Positions 7,031 through 56,960 of a DNA stretch of 64,000 bases are shown here, piece by piece (the first letter of the stretch is position 1; each line of letters opens with the position of its first letter). A program made the position numbers and the translations under genes. A model generated the notes under the pieces. That model did no database searches. It was not told the DNA's origin and saw only the letters and a program-made list of their open reading frames with translations. Source of the DNA: Patescibacteria group bacterium (GTDB lineage: Bacteria; Patescibacteriota; Patescibacteriia; PEXW01); assembly GCA_041665345.1 (NCBI GenBank), contig JBAYJA010000001.1, positions 137,206 through 201,205 of the forward strand, in the 5' to 3' direction.

Positions 7031-7058
7031 TTGACATTTTCCGCAACGTTTGCTATTG
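7031..7058 (+). promoter_or_regulatory. promoter cTTGACAtttt-16-TATTGT
   Basis: Good -35 and -10 boxes. Precedes the 7102 gene. Confidence 0.55.
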
Positions 7059-7101
7059 TTATTCGTCAAATATAAAAATCAATACTTACAGGAGGTCTAT
7101 T

Positions 7102-9690: not shown

Positions 9691-10809
9691 ATGGGAAAAG
9701 AAACTTTCTCACGAACCACGTACAGCAAATCGTACGCGAAATTCGCGTCAAAAGATGGTCCGGCAACGTCAAAGGCTGAGCAAACAGCCCACAAAACTGG
9801 TAAGCTGAATCCGCTTGTTGATCCGCAGGGATTTGGCGTGATTCGGCGTTCACTGCTTCGTCTGGAGCAGCTCCCAAATAAACTTTGGGAAGTGACCGTC
9901 GGAAGTCCACTCCCTATCGAAACCCGAGTCGACACGACCGGCAGCATGGGGCATAACGTTGATATTGCTTTACGGGTTCTTCCGAATGCATTTGAGCAGA
10001 TCAGCGAGGTAACCCCGGGCTACGATCAGCAGGTTGCCACCGGTATTTTTGGTGACGTGCAGGACCGGTTTGTCCTGTGCCGTCCGCAGTTTGAAATGGT
10101 TGCGGAGAAAATCGTTGAGCAGCTAACCTTAATGGTTCCTGAGCGAGCCGGTGGTGATGCTGACGAAGATCCGCACTACGGCCTATTTGGAGCCGCTTAC
10201 CTGGTTGCCGCGTACATTAATCGGATCGGTCTGAAAAGGTACGATTTCACTGCTTCTGATGCGTCAGCGCGTGATCGACTTGATGAAAGTCAACTTATCC
10301 GAATATTCGGACCCGACGTTTTCGCCAAGGTCGCCGAAAATGGGCATCAAATGCGCGCCGATGATCTCCCCACAACAGCTGATGTTGTGCAAGATCTCCT
10401 CAAACGCGCACATGCCTTTTTCCTGCAGGTTGGCGACAATTCGGAGACCACCAGATTCTGGACAAGAATCTACGGTCGCGAACGCGTGGTCATTCTGCCA
10501 AGCACCGAGCTAATGCCTCAGGTGCAGGCAACGATCATTGGACTGACCGAAGGAACACTCGATCTGAAAGATGTGCCGGCATTCCTGAAGAAGCACAATG
10601 TGCAATTGGGGGATGCTGAGAAAATCGCCCGTTCGGTTGCCAATATTCCAATTGGCGCACAAGCCGCGTTGCCGAATTTTTCCAAGCGTCCCAAGAAGGG
10701 TGACCTCTTCCGTGAGAAGACCGACCTTTGGCCGGTTGATCCACAGGAGCTTGGAAAAGCTAAGCCCCATAAGGCAAAGCCAGGCGACAAAAAGACTGAA
10801 TGGCTGTAA
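9691..10809 (+). CDS. von Willebrand factor A (vWA) domain protein
   Basis: RVDTTGSMG MIDAS (DxSxS-like) motif after a beta strand. A later GGD segment is present. AGGAAGGAG SD 7 nt upstream. Confidence 0.6.
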   Translation: MGKETFSRTTYSKSYAKFASKDGPATSKAEQTAHKTGKLNPLVDPQGFGVIRRSLLRLEQLPNKLWEVTVGSPLPIETRVDTTGSMGHNVDIALRVLPNAFEQISEVTPGYDQQVATGIFGDVQDRFVLCRPQFEMVAEKIVEQLTLMVPERAGGDADEDPHYGLFGAAYLVAAYINRIGLKRYDFTASDASARDRLDESQLIRIFGPDVFAKVAENGHQMRADDLPTTADVVQDLLKRAHAFFLQVGDNSETTRFWTRIYGRERVVILPSTELMPQVQATIIGLTEGTLDLKDVPAFLKKHNVQLGDAEKIARSVANIPIGAQAALPNFSKRPKKGDLFREKTDLWPVDPQELGKAKPHKAKPGDKKTEWL

Positions 10810-49721: not shown

Positions 49722-49729
49722 GCATAGGT

Positions 49730-50698
49730 ATGAAAATGCTTACCTTTCATGGAGAGTACTCGTACAACAAAGCAACCACGTATGAAGGTTTTGTCGCCCT
49801 TTGTCACTTTGAACCCTTTGATGATATTGATTTGATTCGGAAAGCCGCATTGGCGCTTGTGAAAAAAGCTGGTCGGGAGCAAATTATTGTTGTCCCATTT
49901 GCACATTTGCATAGCAAAGTTGCACCAAGCAAGGAAGGGAAATTTCTTTTTCAAACACTAGTGCACAGCATTTCTTCTCAACATCCGAAAACGGTGTCGG
50001 CACCATTTGCTGTAGAAAAAGCGTTGCATATATCTGTTCCAAAAAAAGATTCACTAATAAATTTTCTCAATTTTAAACCTACATACCTTCATGAAGTTCG
50101 GAGGCTCTATGAGGTCTACGCGGAAGATTACGATTTGCACATGATGAAAACCGGGCATTACAAAGCGCAAGAGAGAATTTATGAGGCCGTGAAGGCACAC
50201 ATTTATGAGCCGGTCATCGATGTTGCTTGTGGTCCTGGTTTTTTACTGACGCAAATAATGCGAGATTATTCAAAAGTGTACGCGAACGACATTTCCGAAG
50301 CAATGATTGCTCTTGCAAAAGCGCGAGTGAAAGGAAAGCATATTGCATTTTCAAAAGATGATGCGATGACCCTTGATTCTTTTGGTGGCAAAAGATTTGG
50401 AACAATTATTTCATCTAATCTTTTTTACTATATAAAAGACAGAGAAAAGGCAGTACAAGGGTGGAAAAAGTTTTTACAGGATAGTGGGAGCATTATTTTT
50501 ATTGAGGAGTACCCGTTTATAAACACAAAATCGAAATATTTTGAGGGAAAAAGAAGCGGGATTACCAGTATTCTCTCACCAGTTTCACCCGATGAAATCA
50601 CCGCGCTCATGAAGCACAATGGCTTTACACTGACGCTGAATACAAAAACCGCAATAGATAAACGACATGATTTATTTGGGTTGGTATTTAAAAAATAA
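49730..50698 (+). CDS. class I SAM-dependent methyltransferase with an unknown N-terminal domain; low-GC, likely horizontally acquired
   Basis: Motif I VIDVACGPGFLL. About 40% GC against about 58% in flanking copper genes. Confidence 0.7.
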   Translation: MKMLTFHGEYSYNKATTYEGFVALCHFEPFDDIDLIRKAALALVKKAGREQIIVVPFAHLHSKVAPSKEGKFLFQTLVHSISSQHPKTVSAPFAVEKALHISVPKKDSLINFLNFKPTYLHEVRRLYEVYAEDYDLHMMKTGHYKAQERIYEAVKAHIYEPVIDVACGPGFLLTQIMRDYSKVYANDISEAMIALAKARVKGKHIAFSKDDAMTLDSFGGKRFGTIISSNLFYYIKDREKAVQGWKKFLQDSGSIIFIEEYPFINTKSKYFEGKRSGITSILSPVSPDEITALMKHNGFTLTLNTKTAIDKRHDLFGLVFKK

Positions 50699-50880
50699 TC
50701 TATGCCTTCACATATTCCCTTTGACCCTGATTTTGACCAACCTGCACGCACGCCTTTCCCTGGGTTTCTCCGGGGCACAAGTGCACGAGTTGCGCTCATC
50801 CTCGGTATGACCATCGGAATGTCGGCCTTGAGTTTCATTGGCATTGTGCTTTTTCTGCTCTTGAAGCGTAACGGTTAGGT

Positions 50881-51630: not shown

Positions 51631-53844
51631 ATGGCTGAGCAAATTGTACTCTCACTTCGTGGCATGCACTGTGCAAGTTGTAGTCAGTTGATTGAGTTGG
51701 CATTGCGGAAAACACCTGGCGTGCAAACAGCAACCGTGAATGTGGCTACCGAGCAAGCACACGTGGAGTACGATCCAGCTGCCGTTGACGTACCAACTTT
51801 AGAATCCGCAGTGCAGAAGATTGGTTACGGCGCTGAACGGGTAGTTGCAGCGGGGGTGGCCGCCAGTCACCAACGTGACCGTGTAGCGGAGCAGCGGAAT
51901 CAAGATATGCGTCGGTTGCAGCGCTTTTTCTGGCTTGCCCTCAGCTTTTCCATCCCGGTCTTTGTCTTGAGCATGGGCATGTCGGTCTTGCCGGTTATTG
52001 AGGACATTCCTGGCCGTGCGTGGATTGTGCTTGGGCTGACGTTGCCAGTGCAGTTCTACGCGGGTTGGCAATTTTTCGTTGGGTTCTGGGGCGCCCTGCG
52101 TGCGCGAACGGCGAACATGGATTCGCTCATTGCTATTGGAACATCCGCAGCTTTTCTGTACTCACTCTTCGTGACGGTTGGTGTGGTGGAAGGGGAGCTG
52201 TACTTCGAAATTGCCGCTATTCTCATAACGTTTGTTCTCCTGGGGAAAATGTTGGAAGGCCGGGCAAAGGGGAAGGCGAGTGAAGCCATTCGGAGTCTAG
52301 CCGGCTTGCAAGCCAAGACTGCGATCGTCATCAAGAACGGGCAAGAGGTTGCGGTGCCAGTTGAAGCGGTGCAGGTTGGTGATGTGCTGCGGGTGAAGCC
52401 AGGCCAAAAAATTCCCGTGGATGGTATTGTCGAATCCGGTACGTCCAGCGTGGATGAGTCTATGGTTACCGGAGAAAGTTTGCCGGTGGAAAAGGGTGAA
52501 GGGGATGCCGTCATTGGTGCGACCATCAACGTCAACGGTAGCTTCACCTTCCGGGCAACCAAAGTCGGCGCTGCAACGATGCTCGCGGGTATTATGAAAC
52601 TCGTGGAAGAAGCACAAGCAAGCAAGGCACCAATCCAGCGATTTGCCGATCGCGTGTCGGCGTACTTTGTTCCGGCGGTGATCGCGCTTGCTTTCATTAC
52701 CTTTGTCAGTTGGTTTTTTCTGGCTGGTGAACCCTTTGTGGAAAGCCTGCTGGCGTTTGTCGCTGTCTTGGTCATTGCCTGCCCATGCGCTCTGGGACTA
52801 GCCACACCCACGGCGATTATTACTGGCACTGGCTTGGGCGCGCAGCGGGGGATCCTCATCAAAGGTGGTGAAGCATTGGAAGCCGCCCGGAAAATTGACG
52901 TGGTGGTGTTTGATAAAACCGGGACGCTGACGCATGGCAAGCCGGAAGTCACCGACACCCTCACTTTTTCCTCGCTGTTCACCAGTGCACAAGTCTTACG
53001 TTACGCTGCTGCGGTTGAAAAGCTATCGAGCCATCCCTTGGCTACCGCCATAGTCCGTGCCGCTGGGGAGTCTGCGTTGACACCGGAAGATTTTCAAACA
53101 GTACCTGGCCAAGGCGTGAAGGCAATTGTTGATGGACAGCACGTACTGCTTGGTAATCGGACAATGCTCTCCTCAGCACATATCGTGGTATCGTCTGAAG
53201 CCGAAACGCGCATCCAACACCTTGAGCAGGCCGGCAAGACCGTCATGCTCTTGGCTGTCGATAAGCACCTCGCAGGGAGTATCGCCGTTGCTGATACAGT
53301 AAAACCCTCGGCAAAGCCTGCCCTGGCAGCACTCCATGACTTGGGTATTCGGACCGTGATGATCACCGGTGATAACCAACGGACAGCCGAGGCAATTGCG
53401 GCATCGTTGGGGATCGGTGATGTGCAAGCCGAAGTCCTGCCCCAGCAGAAGGAGCAAGCCGTGGCGAAGTACCAAGCTCAGGGAAAGCGGGTGGCGTTTG
53501 TGGGTGATGGGATCAATGACGCGCCGGCGTTGGCGCGCGCAAACCTGGGCATTGCCATTGGCTCTGGGACAGATGTGGCAATGGAGACCGGGCAAATTGT
53601 GCTGGTGCGTGATGACTTGATGGACGTCGTCCGTGCCATCAAACTTGCCCGGGCAACCTTCCGAAAAATAGTCCAAAATTTTTTCTGGGCCCTGGGGTAC
53701 AACGTCGCCGGCATTCCCATTGCCGCCGGCGCGTTTGCCTGGGCTGGCCTTACCCTGCGGCCTGAGTTTGCGGGTTTGGCAATGGCATTGTCGTCTGTGT
53801 CCGTGGTGAGTAATTCGCTGCTCCTGAAGCGTTGGAAAGGGTGA
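51631..53844 (+). CDS. copA: copper-translocating P1B-type ATPase CopA
   Basis: HMA MHCASC, CPC motif [24 protein letters not shown]-terminal [10 protein letters not shown]. Confidence 0.95.
53816..53842 (+). repeat. 27-bp direct repeat, copy 1 (cgctgctcctgaagcgttggaaagggt) at the copA 3' end
   Basis: Identical 27-mer at 56093-56119. Brackets a 2.28-kb GC-rich segment. Confidence 0.75.
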
Positions 53845-56092
53845 GAGGAAATGAAAATATAAACAATACTAGTAACCCTTTTGAGTAAAAGGATACTATT
53901 AGTATGGGGTTAGTATTTCTGTTAAAATGAGGCTGTTATGCACACCGAAAACCCCGGTTTCCTCAAGGAGAAGTACAGTAATTTCCACACCAGTGAGGAG
54001 GTGGAACGTGCTGCCGTGCGCACGGAAGGGCGAACCGGTGAGAAAGTCCCGCAAGACCCTGCAGCAAAGATCCAGAACTACCTTGGCCGTCTGGAACGAC
54101 TGGCCATGGACTCGGAGAAGACCCAAGGCAAGAAGATGGTGGCGGGGAAATCCCGCCCCCGTGCTCTGTCTCTGCTGCGAGACATGGTCATGGAGAAGTA
54201 CGTCCGCGCCAACAAGGACAAGCTGGCCGAAGGTGCGGCCCGGGTGGAAGAGCGGGCTGCCCGGAACCTAGGCATGGATGTACGGTACAACGAAGAAGCA
54301 CTGGAACAGCGTGGTGAGATCGCCGTGGAAGACCTGGAGAAGTCCCTGGACAACTGGCTGCTGTACCTGTCTGATGCTAACGAGCCCTACCCCACCTGGT
54401 TCCGCTACTACGCCTTCCGGAATGTCCTGGAGATGGGTGACTTTGACAAGGACAAAGGTGAGTTCACGAAGCGTTCCCCTGGCACCACCCGTCTGTTCCC
54501 CGATGTGGACCACGGAGCCTTGGCGCACGTACAGCAGATGATCGAGGCCGCGAAAGACCCAGCTATGCTGGCACGCCTCCAGGACGCCCAGCGTGCTGCC
54601 GCGAATAACAACCTCCCCGCCGGTGAACTCCTCACCAAGGAGAAGGTCGCAGCCTTTGCCAAGCTCTCCTTTGCCAAGCAGTACGCCGAGGGTATCCGTC
54701 AGGCCGGAGAGATTACCCCAGAGATGAAGGAAGAAACCCAAGGCAAGTGGGTCACCTACCAAAAGGGCACTGACCCTACCGCCCTCTGGGCCTCCCTGCA
54801 GAATAAAGGCACGGCCTGGTGCACGAAAGGTTACGCGACGGCAGCAAAGCAGCTTGAAACAGGCGACTTCCACGTGCACTACACCCTAGACAGCCAAGGC
54901 AAGCCCACCATTCCTCGGATTGCCATTCGTATGGATGGTGACCAGATCGGCGAAGTCCGCGGTGTAGCAGACAACCAGCAAAATTTGGAAGGCAACATGA
55001 TCACAATTGCCGAAGAAAAAATGGCTGGACTCCCAGGGGCAGAGGGGTACAAGAAAAAGTCTGCGGACATGAAAGCTCTCACAGAAATTGAGCAGGCAGT
55101 GAAAGCAAACAAACAGCTTACCAGCACCCAGCTCCGCTTTCTCTACGAAGTTGATTCGCCAATTGAGCAATTTGGTTTTAAACGTGACCCCCGCATCAAT
55201 GAGTTGCTCGCTACAAGGAACCCTGAGGAGGATATACATCTTTACGGGTATGACATTGCACATCCAGACACGCAGGCGCTGAAGTTTATTTACGATATCG
55301 GTGATAAGCGCGTCCCTCGATCATTCCTTCCAACAATAGAAATACTTCGCCGAAGTCGTAACATCGAAGCAGACCTGCCTGTGGTGTTCGAGTGCATACC
55401 TGATCAAATCGCCCGAGATGCAGAGCATATTACCGAGGACACCAAAGCATACGTAGGGAAGCTCGTCCCCGGTATCTTCCAGATGCTCCCTGAAGGAATT
55501 GAGCATATTTACACTGCTTTCCCTGAAGGTCGGATTCGCCAAGATCCCGTGAACATTGGCGGCACAACGAAAGCAGACCTCCAACGCCAGCTGGAGGAGC
55601 AAGGTATTGGAAAAACATCCTTCGCCGATTACATGTTAGACAGTCGGGACTTTACCACGGGTACAGAAACCGAAACCGCTAACTTGGTTCGTCTTACTGT
55701 GGAGATGCTGGGCTTCCCGAAAGGCGCAACCACGAAGGAAATTTACGAGCGTGCAGAGGAGTTGGGCTTGGAACTCTGCCCTGCAGAAGTCGGCCCGCAG
55801 TACCGGCTGAAAAATACAAATCAACCGATGAATGAGTCGATTGTTATTGGCATGAAGCAAATTACAAGTTGGAACGGCAACCCGCACGTTTTCAACCTGG
55901 AGCGCGACGAAAACGGTCTGTGGTTGTACGAGAACTATGCGAAGTCTAACAAGGAGTGGAATCCGAAGTCCGAGTTTGCCTTCCGCCTCCGCAAGAAAAA
56001 GAAGGAAGCTGTGGATCAATCCGAGGTGGAAAAGTAACCCATGTCAAAAATCATTGTCGGTCTCTCAGGTGGAGTTGATTCGTCCGTAGCCG
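53843..56092 (+). mobile_element. 2.3-kb insertion flanked by 27-bp direct repeats; carries one large ORF and an mnmA 5' fragment
   Basis: Perfect direct repeats. Internal GC and codon usage are distinct. The right end carries a truncated MnmA N-terminus. No recombinase was identified. Confidence 0.45.
53938..56037 (+). CDS. large hypothetical protein (699 aa), GC-rich relative to neighbours
   Basis: Continuous ORF with no motif I recognise. Confidence 0.55.
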   Translation: MHTENPGFLKEKYSNFHTSEEVERAAVRTEGRTGEKVPQDPAAKIQNYLGRLERLAMDSEKTQGKKMVAGKSRPRALSLLRDMVMEKYVRANKDKLAEGAARVEERAARNLGMDVRYNEEALEQRGEIAVEDLEKSLDNWLLYLSDANEPYPTWFRYYAFRNVLEMGDFDKDKGEFTKRSPGTTRLFPDVDHGALAHVQQMIEAAKDPAMLARLQDAQRAAANNNLPAGELLTKEKVAAFAKLSFAKQYAEGIRQAGEITPEMKEETQGKWVTYQKGTDPTALWASLQNKGTAWCTKGYATAAKQLETGDFHVHYTLDSQGKPTIPRIAIRMDGDQIGEVRGVADNQQNLEGNMITIAEEKMAGLPGAEGYKKKSADMKALTEIEQAVKANKQLTSTQLRFLYEVDSPIEQFGFKRDPRINELLATRNPEEDIHLYGYDIAHPDTQALKFIYDIGDKRVPRSFLPTIEILRRSRNIEADLPVVFECIPDQIARDAEHITEDTKAYVGKLVPGIFQMLPEGIEHIYTAFPEGRIRQDPVNIGGTTKADLQRQLEEQGIGKTSFADYMLDSRDFTTGTETETANLVRLTVEMLGFPKGATTKEIYERAEELGLELCPAEVGPQYRLKNTNQPMNESIVIGMKQITSWNGNPHVFNLERDENGLWLYENYAKSNKEWNPKSEFAFRLRKKKKEAVDQSEVEK

Positions 56093-56121
56093 CGCTGCTC
56101 CTGAAGCGTTGGAAAGGGTAG
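56041..56121 (+). pseudogene. mnmA: truncated 5' fragment of tRNA 2-thiouridylase gene mnmA (26 codons), fused to the direct repeat
   Basis: MSKIIVGLSGGVDSSVAALLL is the MnmA PP-loop N-terminus. The reading frame ends in the repeat (KRWKG stop). Confidence 0.5.
56093..56119 (+). repeat. 27-bp direct repeat, copy 2
   Basis: See copy 1. Confidence 0.75.
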
Positions 56122-56246
56122 GGCATAGTGGTACACTGAGGGCTGTGGAGACCAACACCGACAACCAACGCCACCCACAGCACGCCCAGATTCACCAAGA
56201 ACTGCGGGGTGCCAGCGCGCAAGGAGGACCCGATAGTTCCGTGCTC

Positions 56247-56960
56247 ATGCCCCCGCACGTGCACTGGTTCAAGCCGCTCATGCTTGGGTTGGCACTTTTT
56301 ATCATTGTCTTCTTAGGTACAGTCATTGCCGTGGATGCCTACCGGGCGCGCCAGCAGAATGCAGATCCTTTTGCGGCTGCCACAAGCGGAACGGATGGGC
56401 AATCGACCGTGAGCAACATTCAGACTACCAATCGTTCAGCAATTCCAAAACTGGAAACCGCAGACGATCCGTTCCTGGGTCCGGAGAATGCGTCAGTCAT
56501 TGTGGTGCTCTTTGCGGATTTCCAATGTCCATTTTGCAAAGAGTTTTACTCCACTTACCGGGAAGTTGCCGTGCAGTACCAAAACCGTGTGAAGTTCATT
56601 TTCCGGGACATGCCGCTTACGGATATTCACGACCGTGCGCAAGCAACGGCTGAAGCTGCAGGGTGTGCATTTGCGCAGAGTAATGAAAAATTTTGGGCAT
56701 ACCACGACCGGCTCTACCAAAATCAGGACGATTTGTCCGATGCCGCACTGCTCCGTGCGGCCACGCAAGTGGGTCTGGATGAAAAGCAATTTTCTGCCTG
56801 CGTTGCTTCGCATGAACGGAAAACTGAAGTGGACGAAGACTACCTGGATGGTGCGTCTGCCGGAGTTCGCGGCACGCCCACCCTGTTCTTCAACGGTCGG
56901 CGGGTGCAAGGGGTTATCCCAAAAGACAAGTTCACCAAGGCGCTGGATTTACTCTTATAA
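56247..56960 (+). CDS. membrane-anchored DsbA-family thiol:disulfide oxidoreductase (paralogue 1)
   Basis: TM anchor, then thioredoxin fold with CPFC active site. The start is uncertain (ORF-track start 56109 overlaps the repeat). Confidence 0.65.
   Translation: MPPHVHWFKPLMLGLALFIIVFLGTVIAVDAYRARQQNADPFAAATSGTDGQSTVSNIQTTNRSAIPKLETADDPFLGPENASVIVVLFADFQCPFCKEFYSTYREVAVQYQNRVKFIFRDMPLTDIHDRAQATAEAAGCAFAQSNEKFWAYHDRLYQNQDDLSDAALLRAATQVGLDEKQFSACVASHERKTEVDEDYLDGASAGVRGTPTLFFNGRRVQGVIPKDKFTKALDLLL

Follow-up and report, generated by a model that had tools for sequence, protein, structure and literature searches.

The window analyzed here comprises 64,000 nucleotides of a Patescibacteria group bacterium (assembly GCA_041665345.1, contig JBAYJA010000001.1, positions 137,206 to 201,205). 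Between a copper ATPase gene (copA) and the gene for a DsbA-like thioredoxin (dsbA), it contains a segment of 2,250 bp (53843-56092) bordered by two copies of the 27-mer CGCTGCTCCTGAAGCGTTGGAAAGGGT. A first-pass annotation made from the letters alone had described perfect 27-bp direct repeats at this place, and the two copies are indeed exact and the only ones in the window; a search of the whole window allowing up to 3 mismatches finds no third copy, the chance expectation being none. The first copy is the native copA 3' end, as had been read. From position 56093 on, the window is collinear with the insert-free sites of two relatives (L060 and L061). The only long open reading frame (ORF) between the repeat copies encodes a protein of 699 amino acids, here called X. 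It is preceded by an AT-rich leader and followed, 3 nt past its stop codon, by the 5' end of mnmA, the gene of a tRNA 2-thiouridylase (Table 1).

The 2.25-kb segment is a real lineage-specific insertion. The closest copA homologs, with 88%, 88%, and 76% identity, are found on L060, L061, and the P0123 contig, and these three relatives share the gene order PYNP-PenR-M48-DsbD-cupredoxin-copA-dsbA-rpiB-rpe-fba, with dsbA directly after copA and no insert between them. The two orthologs with 88% identity have the same tail as the copA of the window, ending in AATTCG(C/T)TGCTCCTCAAGCGTTGGAAAGGGTAAGGGTCTAGTGGTACACTGA, and contain the 27-mer once, with 1 difference (L060) and 2 differences (L061) in 27 positions. 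The empty sites in three syntenic relatives therefore identify the 2,250 bp as an insertion, as first proposed, and the repeat as a duplicated copA 3' end. The left join directly follows the T of the copA stop codon. This codon has changed from TAG to TGA and now consists of the repeat's last T and the GA with which the insert begins; the insertion left both copA and the dsbA leader intact. In the relatives, dsbA starts 24 nt past the copA stop codon. The copA tail and this 24-nt spacer show nucleotide conservation far above that of the surrounding genes (window 53816-53842 and 56093-56150; L060 8170-8240; L061 3347-3417): the 27-mer differs at only the 1 or 2 positions mentioned, although the proportion of synonymous differences (pS) in copA and dsbA is ∼0.6. 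This conservation hints at a possible regulatory or translational-coupling element.

At the right end of the segment, the first 26 codons of mnmA had been read as fused into the repeat. The best family matches of the 26-codon ORF (56041-56121) are indeed the MnmA N terminus and its PP-loop, but only codons 1 to 17 (56041-56091) are unambiguously mnmA. Codons 18 to 22 are common to mnmA and copA, and codons 23 to 26 with the stop codon are the copA tail. As a side observation, this mnmA'-copA-tail ORF stops at the native stop codon and in the native position relative to the dsbA start. The fragment is 86% identical to the resident intact mnmA over the first 66 nt, and its PP-loop motif is intact. 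The resident gene, which encodes 356 amino acids, is located ∼427 kb away, 21 nt downstream of a paralog of X on the same contig and the opposite strand. This paralog, X' (653 amino acids; 75% amino acid identity), is the further copy of the 699-amino-acid gene for which a search had been advised. An X-mnmA adjacency was considered as a conserved trait of the X family and rejected, as mnmA lies within 5 kb of X in just 2 of 53 other loci. Both the fragment and the resident mnmA start with MSKIIV, which is lacking in other Patescibacteria mnmA genes. The rare X-mnmA proximity and the shared MSKIIV together indicate that the insert derives from an X-mnmA locus of this lineage, and the position of X' upstream of the intact mnmA in the same genome explains the fragment. 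The earlier idea of flanking DNA captured from an mnmA site is thus borne out, the mnmA piece having been carried over from such a locus.

The repeat itself contributes to both genes. Its first 14 nt, CGCTGCTCCTGAAG, continue the mnmA frame as the motif AALLLK, and at this position the resident mnmA reads CGCTGCTTCTGCAG, identical at 12 of 14 nt. In its context, the resident gene has GTAGCCGCGCTGCTTCTGCAGCAGCAG, compared to GTAGCCGCGCTGCTCCTGAAG followed by the copA tail CGTTGGAAAGGGTAG in the insert. LLK is found at this position in the mnmA of one of the two other Patescibacteria loci examined (L048). Since the 14 nt are both copA and mnmA, the right-hand crossover is placed inside the CGCTGCTCCTGAAG microhomology, and the unambiguously duplicated copA sequence is limited to the last 13 nt of the repeat. 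A recombination between short homologies, which the first-pass annotation had offered as an alternative, fits this junction. L048, a Ryanbacteria contig, is the only other place with X and mnmA as close neighbors. Its X homolog (2-1258) can be matched only to residue ∼427 and is followed by 87 bp (1732-1818), 95% identical to the X-downstream spacer of locus L034, and then by mnmA (1930-2952).

Table 1. Features of the insertion locus in the window and direct repeats bracketing X homologs at other loci
Feature	Sequence	Position(s)	Strand	Description
copA	Window	51631..53844	+	Heavy-metal P-type (Cu) ATPase, 737 aa; Pfam E1-E2_ATPase, Hydrolase, HMA
Direct repeat copy 1	Window	53816..53842	+	Exact 27-mer; last 9 copA codons (SLLLKRWKG) and first base of the stop codon
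Insert leader	Window	53843..53937	+	AT rich, 95 bp; no recognizable similarity to the X' upstream region or to other fetched X loci
Gene X	Window	53938..56037	+	699 aa, variable (target) protein of a diversity-generating retroelement; homologous loci with template repeat, Avd, and reverse transcriptase directly downstream
Segment of 47 aa	Window	55234..55374	+	Residues ∼433-479, this X only; absent from 29/29 aligned homologs; low pLDDT
Variable-repeat equivalent of X	Window	∼55871..55995	+	Ends GCCTTCCGCCTCCGCAAG; 80% identical to the L007 template repeat
mnmA 5' fragment	Window	56041..56092	+	Codons 1-17 and first base of codon 18; PF03054/NF001138 MnmA N terminus
Microhomology, 14 nt	Window	56093..56106	+	CGCTGCTCCTGAAG; copA tail (SLLLK) and mnmA codons 18-22 (ALLLK)
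Direct repeat copy 2	Window	56093..56119	+	Runs on into the native TAG stop codon and the native dsbA leader
dsbA	Window	56145..56960	+	DsbA-like thioredoxin; Pfam Thioredoxin_4, DSBA; native downstream neighbor of copA
Repeat of 182 bp	L019	1214-1395 and 3515-3696		3' part of the upstream Wzy_C gene
Repeat of 57 bp	L011	4840-4896 and 8771-8827		Flanks the whole cassette of X, template repeat, Avd, and reverse transcriptase
Repeat of 61 + 28 + 18 bp	L034	4799-4982 and 7189-7373		
Repeat of 24 + 19 bp	L024	4824 and 7915		Third copy suggests a repeated element
Repeat of 18 bp	L047	4884 and 7251		
Repeat of 14 + 14 bp in an imperfect repeat of ∼78 bp	L051	4900-4977 and 7472-7549		3' end of the upstream tyrosine recombinase gene

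The genome was assembled from a metagenome, which raises the question of a chimera joining two loci through the 27-bp repeat, all the more as an independent JGI contig begins just 536 bp 5' of X. That contig spans both junctions, with 4 mismatches in 10.6 kb. The sequence of the window is identical to that of a 1,075,605-bp ENA contig (k141_1145919), and the left (copA-X) junction is also present in a Logan contig of run SRR6484324. Furthermore, the contig name "k141" implies a final k-mer much longer than 27 bp, and the resident X'-mnmA differs (75% amino acid identity), so that there is no other locus to misjoin from. As three assemblies agree on the junctions, a chimera is very improbable.

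The insertion is probably the result of an illegitimate, possibly homology-anchored, recombination that integrated ∼2.25 kb of DNA from a close relative at the copA/dsbA boundary. The DNA comprises the 95-bp leader, gene X, and the first ∼17 to 22 codons of the adjacent mnmA and would have been taken up in linear form from the X-mnmA locus of a closely related lineage. Its right end is joined to the recipient within the microhomology, 14 bp at most, that the start of mnmA shares with the copA tail, which leaves the last 13 to 27 bp of copA on both sides of the insert. Two variants of this mechanism are conceivable. In variant a, homology-facilitated illegitimate recombination (HFIR, as defined in PMC3240628), the donor would have carried copA directly upstream of leader-X-mnmA, and the left crossover would have been a homologous one inside copA. 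As copA and X'-mnmA have opposite orientations in this genome, one inversion would yield the donor order copA-leader-X-mnmA. This variant would also explain the different stop codons after the two repeat copies. In variant b, a double illegitimate or template-switch event would have taken place, with the return switch 13 to 27 bp upstream of the departure point. Two other events were considered and rejected. With a single inversion between the tail of copA and the mnmA of the resident locus, the right junction is obtained, but copA and mnmA would both be destroyed and the left junction is not accounted for. If a circle had instead entered by Campbell integration at the 14-nt match, CGTTGGAAAGGGT would not stand before the leader.

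The proposed event resembles HFIR and double illegitimate recombination in the integration of foreign linear DNA without mobility genes, in at least one junction at a microhomology, in the cointegration of flanking donor DNA, and in breakpoints that vary between events; locus L051, described below, shows the expected pair of orthologous gene ends. In contrast to known HFIR, the homologous anchor in the window is hypothetical and requires a donor with copA upstream of X, the host is an uncultured Patescibacterium with putative competence, and 13 to 27 bp of the recipient are duplicated instead of the more usual deletion. Two further processes are known relatives of variant b. In SPDIR, microhomologies are the sites where ectopic single strands anneal, to become integrated in the course of replication (bioRxiv 10.1101/2023.11.22.568220), and in interchromatid integration, one donor fragment spans two sister chromatids during transformation, leading to duplications bordered by repeats (PMC3784515). 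Either would yield an insert flanked by a short target duplication. SPDIR patches, however, are short microindels rather than 2.3 kb, and the pneumococcal merodiploids formed by interchromatid integration cover 100 to 900 kb and depend on long repeats derived from insertion sequences (IS).

The age and source of the insert can be approached through its divergence from the resident locus. The synonymous divergence (dS) between X and X' is 0.4 to 0.8 over codons 51 to 300 in the 5' half and rises to >1 toward the C terminus, in the second half. Despite a dS of at least 0.4, no difference has arisen between the two 27-mers. Compared with the resident gene, 9 of 66 nt are changed in the 22 mnmA codons, and nearly all of these changes are synonymous (dS of ∼0.5, pS of 0.37, and proportion of nonsynonymous differences, pN, of 0.04), whereas neutral drift for half of that divergence would be expected to give mostly nonsynonymous changes (rough binomial p of ∼0.02). 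The mostly synonymous differences indicate that purifying selection was acting while this divergence built up, at a time when the fragment was not yet a relic. The spacer between X and mnmA measures 3 nt in the insert, compared to 21 nt at the resident locus, and the leaders are not alignable. Over residues 480 to 640, X is closer to a homolog from another metagenome (P0003; 78% identity) than to X' (67%). Taken together, these features favor a recent integration of already-diverged DNA from a close relative; the insertion appears recent relative to the X/X' divergence, and its source appears not to have been the genome's own X'-mnmA locus. The base composition has no bearing on this question. 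The first-pass annotation had noted a distinctly higher G+C content (GC) for the segment, which holds for the first ∼900 bp (0.60 to 0.61, versus 0.516 for the window) but not for the 3' half (0.47 to 0.52), and the adjacent copA 3' end reaches 0.59. High GC as a mark of foreign DNA was rejected, as the resident X' has the same GC-rich 5' half; the raised GC is a trait of the X gene family.

Several points weigh against a recent uptake from a relative. No donor has come to light: a collection of 5.8 billion proteins contains no X with >75% and no copA with >88% identity, so that the horizontal origin is deduced indirectly, and the left junction shows no microhomology, the donor sequence not having been found. 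An exact 37-mer of the empty site, as expected for the same population, has no match in the JGI metagenomes. The arguments from the mnmA fragment rest on 22 codons only. Over the N-terminal 350 amino acids, X has its closest relative in X' and X' in X (94% identity over residues 1 to 350, versus 75 to 81% to others), and their dS of 0.4 to 1 is no greater than the ∼1.0 to 1.2 that separates this genome from the empty-site relatives, so that the timing leaves room for an old intragenomic duplication. The unusual conservation of the copA tail and dsbA leader likewise weakens the argument that a perfect repeat must be recent. In such a duplication, the genome's own X'-mnmA would have been copied to the copA/dsbA boundary via the same microhomology and would then have diverged, with partial gene conversion of the 5' halves. 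The rank of X' as the nearest relative known for X, the presence of the rare X-mnmA arrangement in this very genome, and the slow evolution of the 27-mer region agree with this scenario. It is nevertheless rather unlikely in view of the nearly synonymous-only differences of the mnmA relic, which shows no decay, the identity of the repeats at the given dS, the unalignable leader and different X-mnmA spacer, and the closer relationship of residues 480 to 640 to P0003. The similarity between X and X' is a mosaic in its own right: positions 53990 to 54815 of the window are 88 to 92% identical in nucleotide sequence to X' (L001 10001-11959, L001 being the resident X' locus), and the rest (54816-56037) is 50 to 78% identical. 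The pattern suggests gene conversion of the 5' halves, a domain replacement, or accelerated decay of the X' C terminus.

Gene X had been regarded as an orphan, a view that no longer holds. At least 630 homologs of ∼640 amino acids with 55 to 75% identity exist, all of them in Patescibacteria and with a very strongly conserved N-terminal part of ∼430 amino acids, the paralog in the same genome being one of them. Comparisons of X with Pfam, NCBIfam, PHROGs, PADLOC, and a PDB sequence profile yield no match, and an antisense ORF of 202 amino acids likewise shows no Pfam match. The family is recognized by its neighbors. On a Yanofskybacteria contig, the genes that come after an X homolog are those of bAvd and of an RVT_1 reverse transcriptase (RT), and tblastn searches with the RT and Avd of L064 as queries place both within 2 kb downstream of the X homolog in 18 of 53 genome loci, with Avd alone in 1 more. 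The last ∼134 nt of the gene have a second copy nearby in 18 loci. Between these template repeats (TRs) and the variable repeats (VRs) in the genes, 324 of 345 mismatches fall on TR adenines (18 loci homologous to X). A TR paired with a VR by adenine mismatches is the defining signature of diversity-generating retroelements (DGRs) (PMC6182149). Based on the homologs with TR-Avd-RT and adenine-specific mismatches, X is identified as a DGR variable protein of a Patescibacteria-specific clade. Its VR equivalent keeps the VR-type end CGCAAG, compared to CGAAAG in the TRs of homologous loci. Many X homologs (tblastn; L007 to L018, L026, L032, L036, L041, and L043) are accompanied by a "mini-ORF" similar to X residues 638 to 686, which corresponds to the DGR template repeat and is found 300 to 400 bp after X or upstream on the other strand.

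The AlphaFold model of X is confident in the C-terminal ∼210 residues only. The nine best Foldseek matches of the model in the PDB are C-type lectin domains, albeit weak ones (E values of 0.15 to 0.4), and X is thus predicted to carry a C-terminal C-type-lectin-like domain as its only recognizable fold. The C-type lectin fold is the usual, conserved scaffold of DGR variable proteins (PMC5006420, PMC6328139). A novel transposase or DDE fold, for which a structure prediction had been advised, does not emerge from the model, and membership in a DGR variable-protein family removes X from the recombinase candidates. The targets of the DGR clade of Patescibacteria, or the Candidate Phyla Radiation (CPR), have been reported to be without recognizable domains (PMC8144416). 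X resembles these CPR targets (clade 2 of Roux et al. 2021, PMC8144416) in its full-length homology, at 55 to 68%, to genes with TR-Avd-RT downstream and in the lack of a recognizable membrane or other domain. In contrast to CPR DGR loci, it stands alone in the window, with no TR, Avd, or RT, and contains the unique 47-amino-acid insertion. This segment is 33% identical to the preceding ∼45 amino acids (BLASTP; E = 0.002) and may be a diverged internal (tandem) duplication of them.

In the sequence examined, no retroelement accompanies the DGR target X. TR, Avd, and RT are absent from the 64-kb window and from 22 kb around the paralog X' (L001), and no second copy of the X VR is found in the window or in L001. 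Of >8,000 RT homologs, the 120 best include none on the 1,075,605-bp contig. A search for the cognate TR by its expected 3' end matches 21 JGI contigs, none of which comes from the sample of this genome; only one of them, L078, has an X-like gene, with 74% nucleotide identity. Two family copies are also present on one contig or in one assembly elsewhere, namely, L030 and L045 (JBLYPW010000001.1) and L058 and L059 (CAYNFP01), the latter two being distant relatives with 36 to 37% identity in the N-terminal part only. Paralogous DGR targets are therefore not peculiar to this genome. The X' locus itself lies 3.6 kb downstream of a gene cluster (L001 1803-6385) for a sigma-70 region-4 protein, a 516-amino-acid protein without a domain, and a TrwB/TraG-like type IV coupling protein.

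A target-site duplication by an unknown mobile element, the other reading offered in the first-pass annotation, finds no support in the gene content. Pfam, PHROGs, NCBIfam, and PADLOC searches reveal no transposase (DDE, HUH, serine, or tyrosine) and no integrase in the insert, tyrosine or serine recombinases are also absent from the neighboring genes, and no terminal inverted repeats pair the regions around 53843 and 56092. No tRNA gene was found near the insert by scanning, and an Rfam scan of 49 to 58 kb returned nothing. An IS or transposon insertion would share the direct target repeats flanking a segment absent from relatives. Unlike such elements, the insert contains neither a transposase nor terminal inverted repeats and is single copy, the only other gene copy in the genome being X' at 75% identity with different flanks; one end lies inside a truncated housekeeping gene, and the 27-bp duplication partly doubles as donor coding sequence.

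Loci of other X homologs show that repeat-flanked arrangements recur. Two scans were performed: the first considered exact direct repeats bracketing X in 36 loci (the window, 34 genome-scan loci, and L001) and detected them in several other genomes (Table 1), and the second considered every direct repeat spaced 0.8 to 7 kb apart in 39 such loci and the window. In the second scan, repeats of at least 24 bp occur in 7 sources, 5 of which, the window included, have X tightly bracketed. X in L019 is followed by a conserved spacer, the one that connects VR and TR in DGR cassettes, and this spacer breaks off before the TR is reached. The sequence of the L011 repeat is also present downstream of the RT in L012 and therefore belongs to the cassette. 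In L051, the repeat copies differ at 7 of 21 codons, all synonymously, which identifies them as two orthologous gene ends from two genomes; this pattern is the signature of homology-anchored integration and is not expected of a copy-paste target duplication. From locus to locus, the repeats have no sequence in common and vary in length between 18 and 185 bp. The right-hand breakpoints vary as well and fall within mnmA, within the VR-TR spacer, past the TR, or past the RT. Such differing repeat sequences and breakpoints argue against a site-specific element, including the mobile element proposed at first, and support a repeated homology-anchored or illegitimate uptake of X fragments among related Patescibacteria.

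A nonautonomous cassette mobilized in trans by a site-specific recombinase or a transposase whose gene lies elsewhere, with the 27-mer as the core of an attachment site (att) or as a long target-site duplication, would account for exact direct repeats at a gene 3' end, as known from many integrase-driven islands, and for the recurrence of repeat-flanked X units, of which L051 adjoins a tyrosine recombinase gene. Repeats that leave copA intact, like an att core, are also seen in illegitimate insertion and are not diagnostic alone. Trans mobilization is improbable given the lack of a recombinase in or next to the insert and of terminal inverted repeats, the unrelated repeats of variable length, the differing right breakpoints, the synonymous-only differences in L051, and the fact that part of the "att" is mnmA coding sequence.

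The connection of the X family with reverse transcriptases raises the alternative of RNA-mediated retroposition. Here, a transcript from the X leader to mnmA would be reverse transcribed by a DGR or other RT, primed on the nicked copA tail via the 14-nt match, and staggered nicks would give a target duplication of variable length. The microhomology on the RNA 3' side agrees with this scheme, and so do the spacers of six repeat-flanked loci, short on the left (∼3 to 104 bp) and long and variable on the right (56 to ∼1,880 bp), as expected from a fixed transcription start and variable priming. Due to this asymmetry, a small probability is kept for an RNA-mediated or otherwise directed process. 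For the window, retroposition is nonetheless highly improbable. The missing RT, Avd, and TR in the window and at the X' locus speak against it; the 120 best RT homologs mentioned include none of this contig. The sole possible in-cell template, the resident X'-mnmA, is too diverged (dS of at least 0.4) and has a different leader, and L051 points to recombination between orthologous DNA. What DGR RTs are known for is the self-primed synthesis of cDNA on their own template RNA (PMC6182149); they are not known for target-primed copying of mRNA. In a broader sense, it is an unlikely thought that DGR variable-protein genes, alone or with TR-Avd-RT, form a dispersing unit that repeatedly lands right behind the 3' ends of host genes and leaves target duplications of 18 to 185 bp by a process other than random illegitimate recombination. 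Such a process, equally speculative, could be an RT-dependent, target-primed copying of a read-through transcript or proceed through a circular cassette intermediate. If this were true, the window would represent one footprint of an undescribed spread of DGR targets, including targets without a retroelement.

With integration of a relative's DNA as the probable course, the locus clearly shows the natural footprint of a gene gain mediated by microhomology, in which the mechanism and the gene family are both of known kinds; it reveals no new kind of mobile element or recombinase. Its value is that of a clean natural case in an uncultured Patescibacterium with a small genome, where empty sites, a donor flank, and the junction microhomology come together and where a gene was gained without a mobile element, with both neighboring genes intact. 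The comparison with other loci suggests that members of this group regularly gain genes by homology-anchored uptake of relatives' DNA, and there is a hint that X genes regularly spread through repeat-flanked insertion behind genes of the host. A large and highly conserved family of "hypothetical proteins" can be reannotated as DGR variable proteins. DGR targets can persist without a retroelement in the sequence examined and as paralogs in one genome, and such lone and paralogous targets bear on the growth and decay of DGR target repertoires.

A consensus scan shows no sigma-70-like promoter in the leader, and no terminator-like site is found between copA and X, the sole one on the plus strand lying inside dsbA (56264-56292). 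RNA folding of the X-mnmA'-repeat region reveals no structure (z = +1.06).

Long direct repeats also bound segments of 2.4 to 3.7 kb without X in L036 (29 bp; 7039-7067 and 10737-10765) and L035 (77 + 47 bp; 1-123 and 2374-2491), which may be other insertions. The L036 repeat contains TTCGAATCC, which resembles a tRNA T-loop. A second lineage-specific insertion is found in the same operon as the first (window 49722-50700), where no flanking direct repeat of at least 16 bp was detected. It contains a gene (49730-50698) with a GC of 0.38 to 0.45 for a protein of 322 amino acids with a class I methyltransferase domain and a weakly tRNA-Thr_ED-like N terminus. The gene sits exactly between the DsbD gene and a conserved membrane ORF of 58 amino acids, a position at which L060 and L061 have ∼11 to 14 nt.

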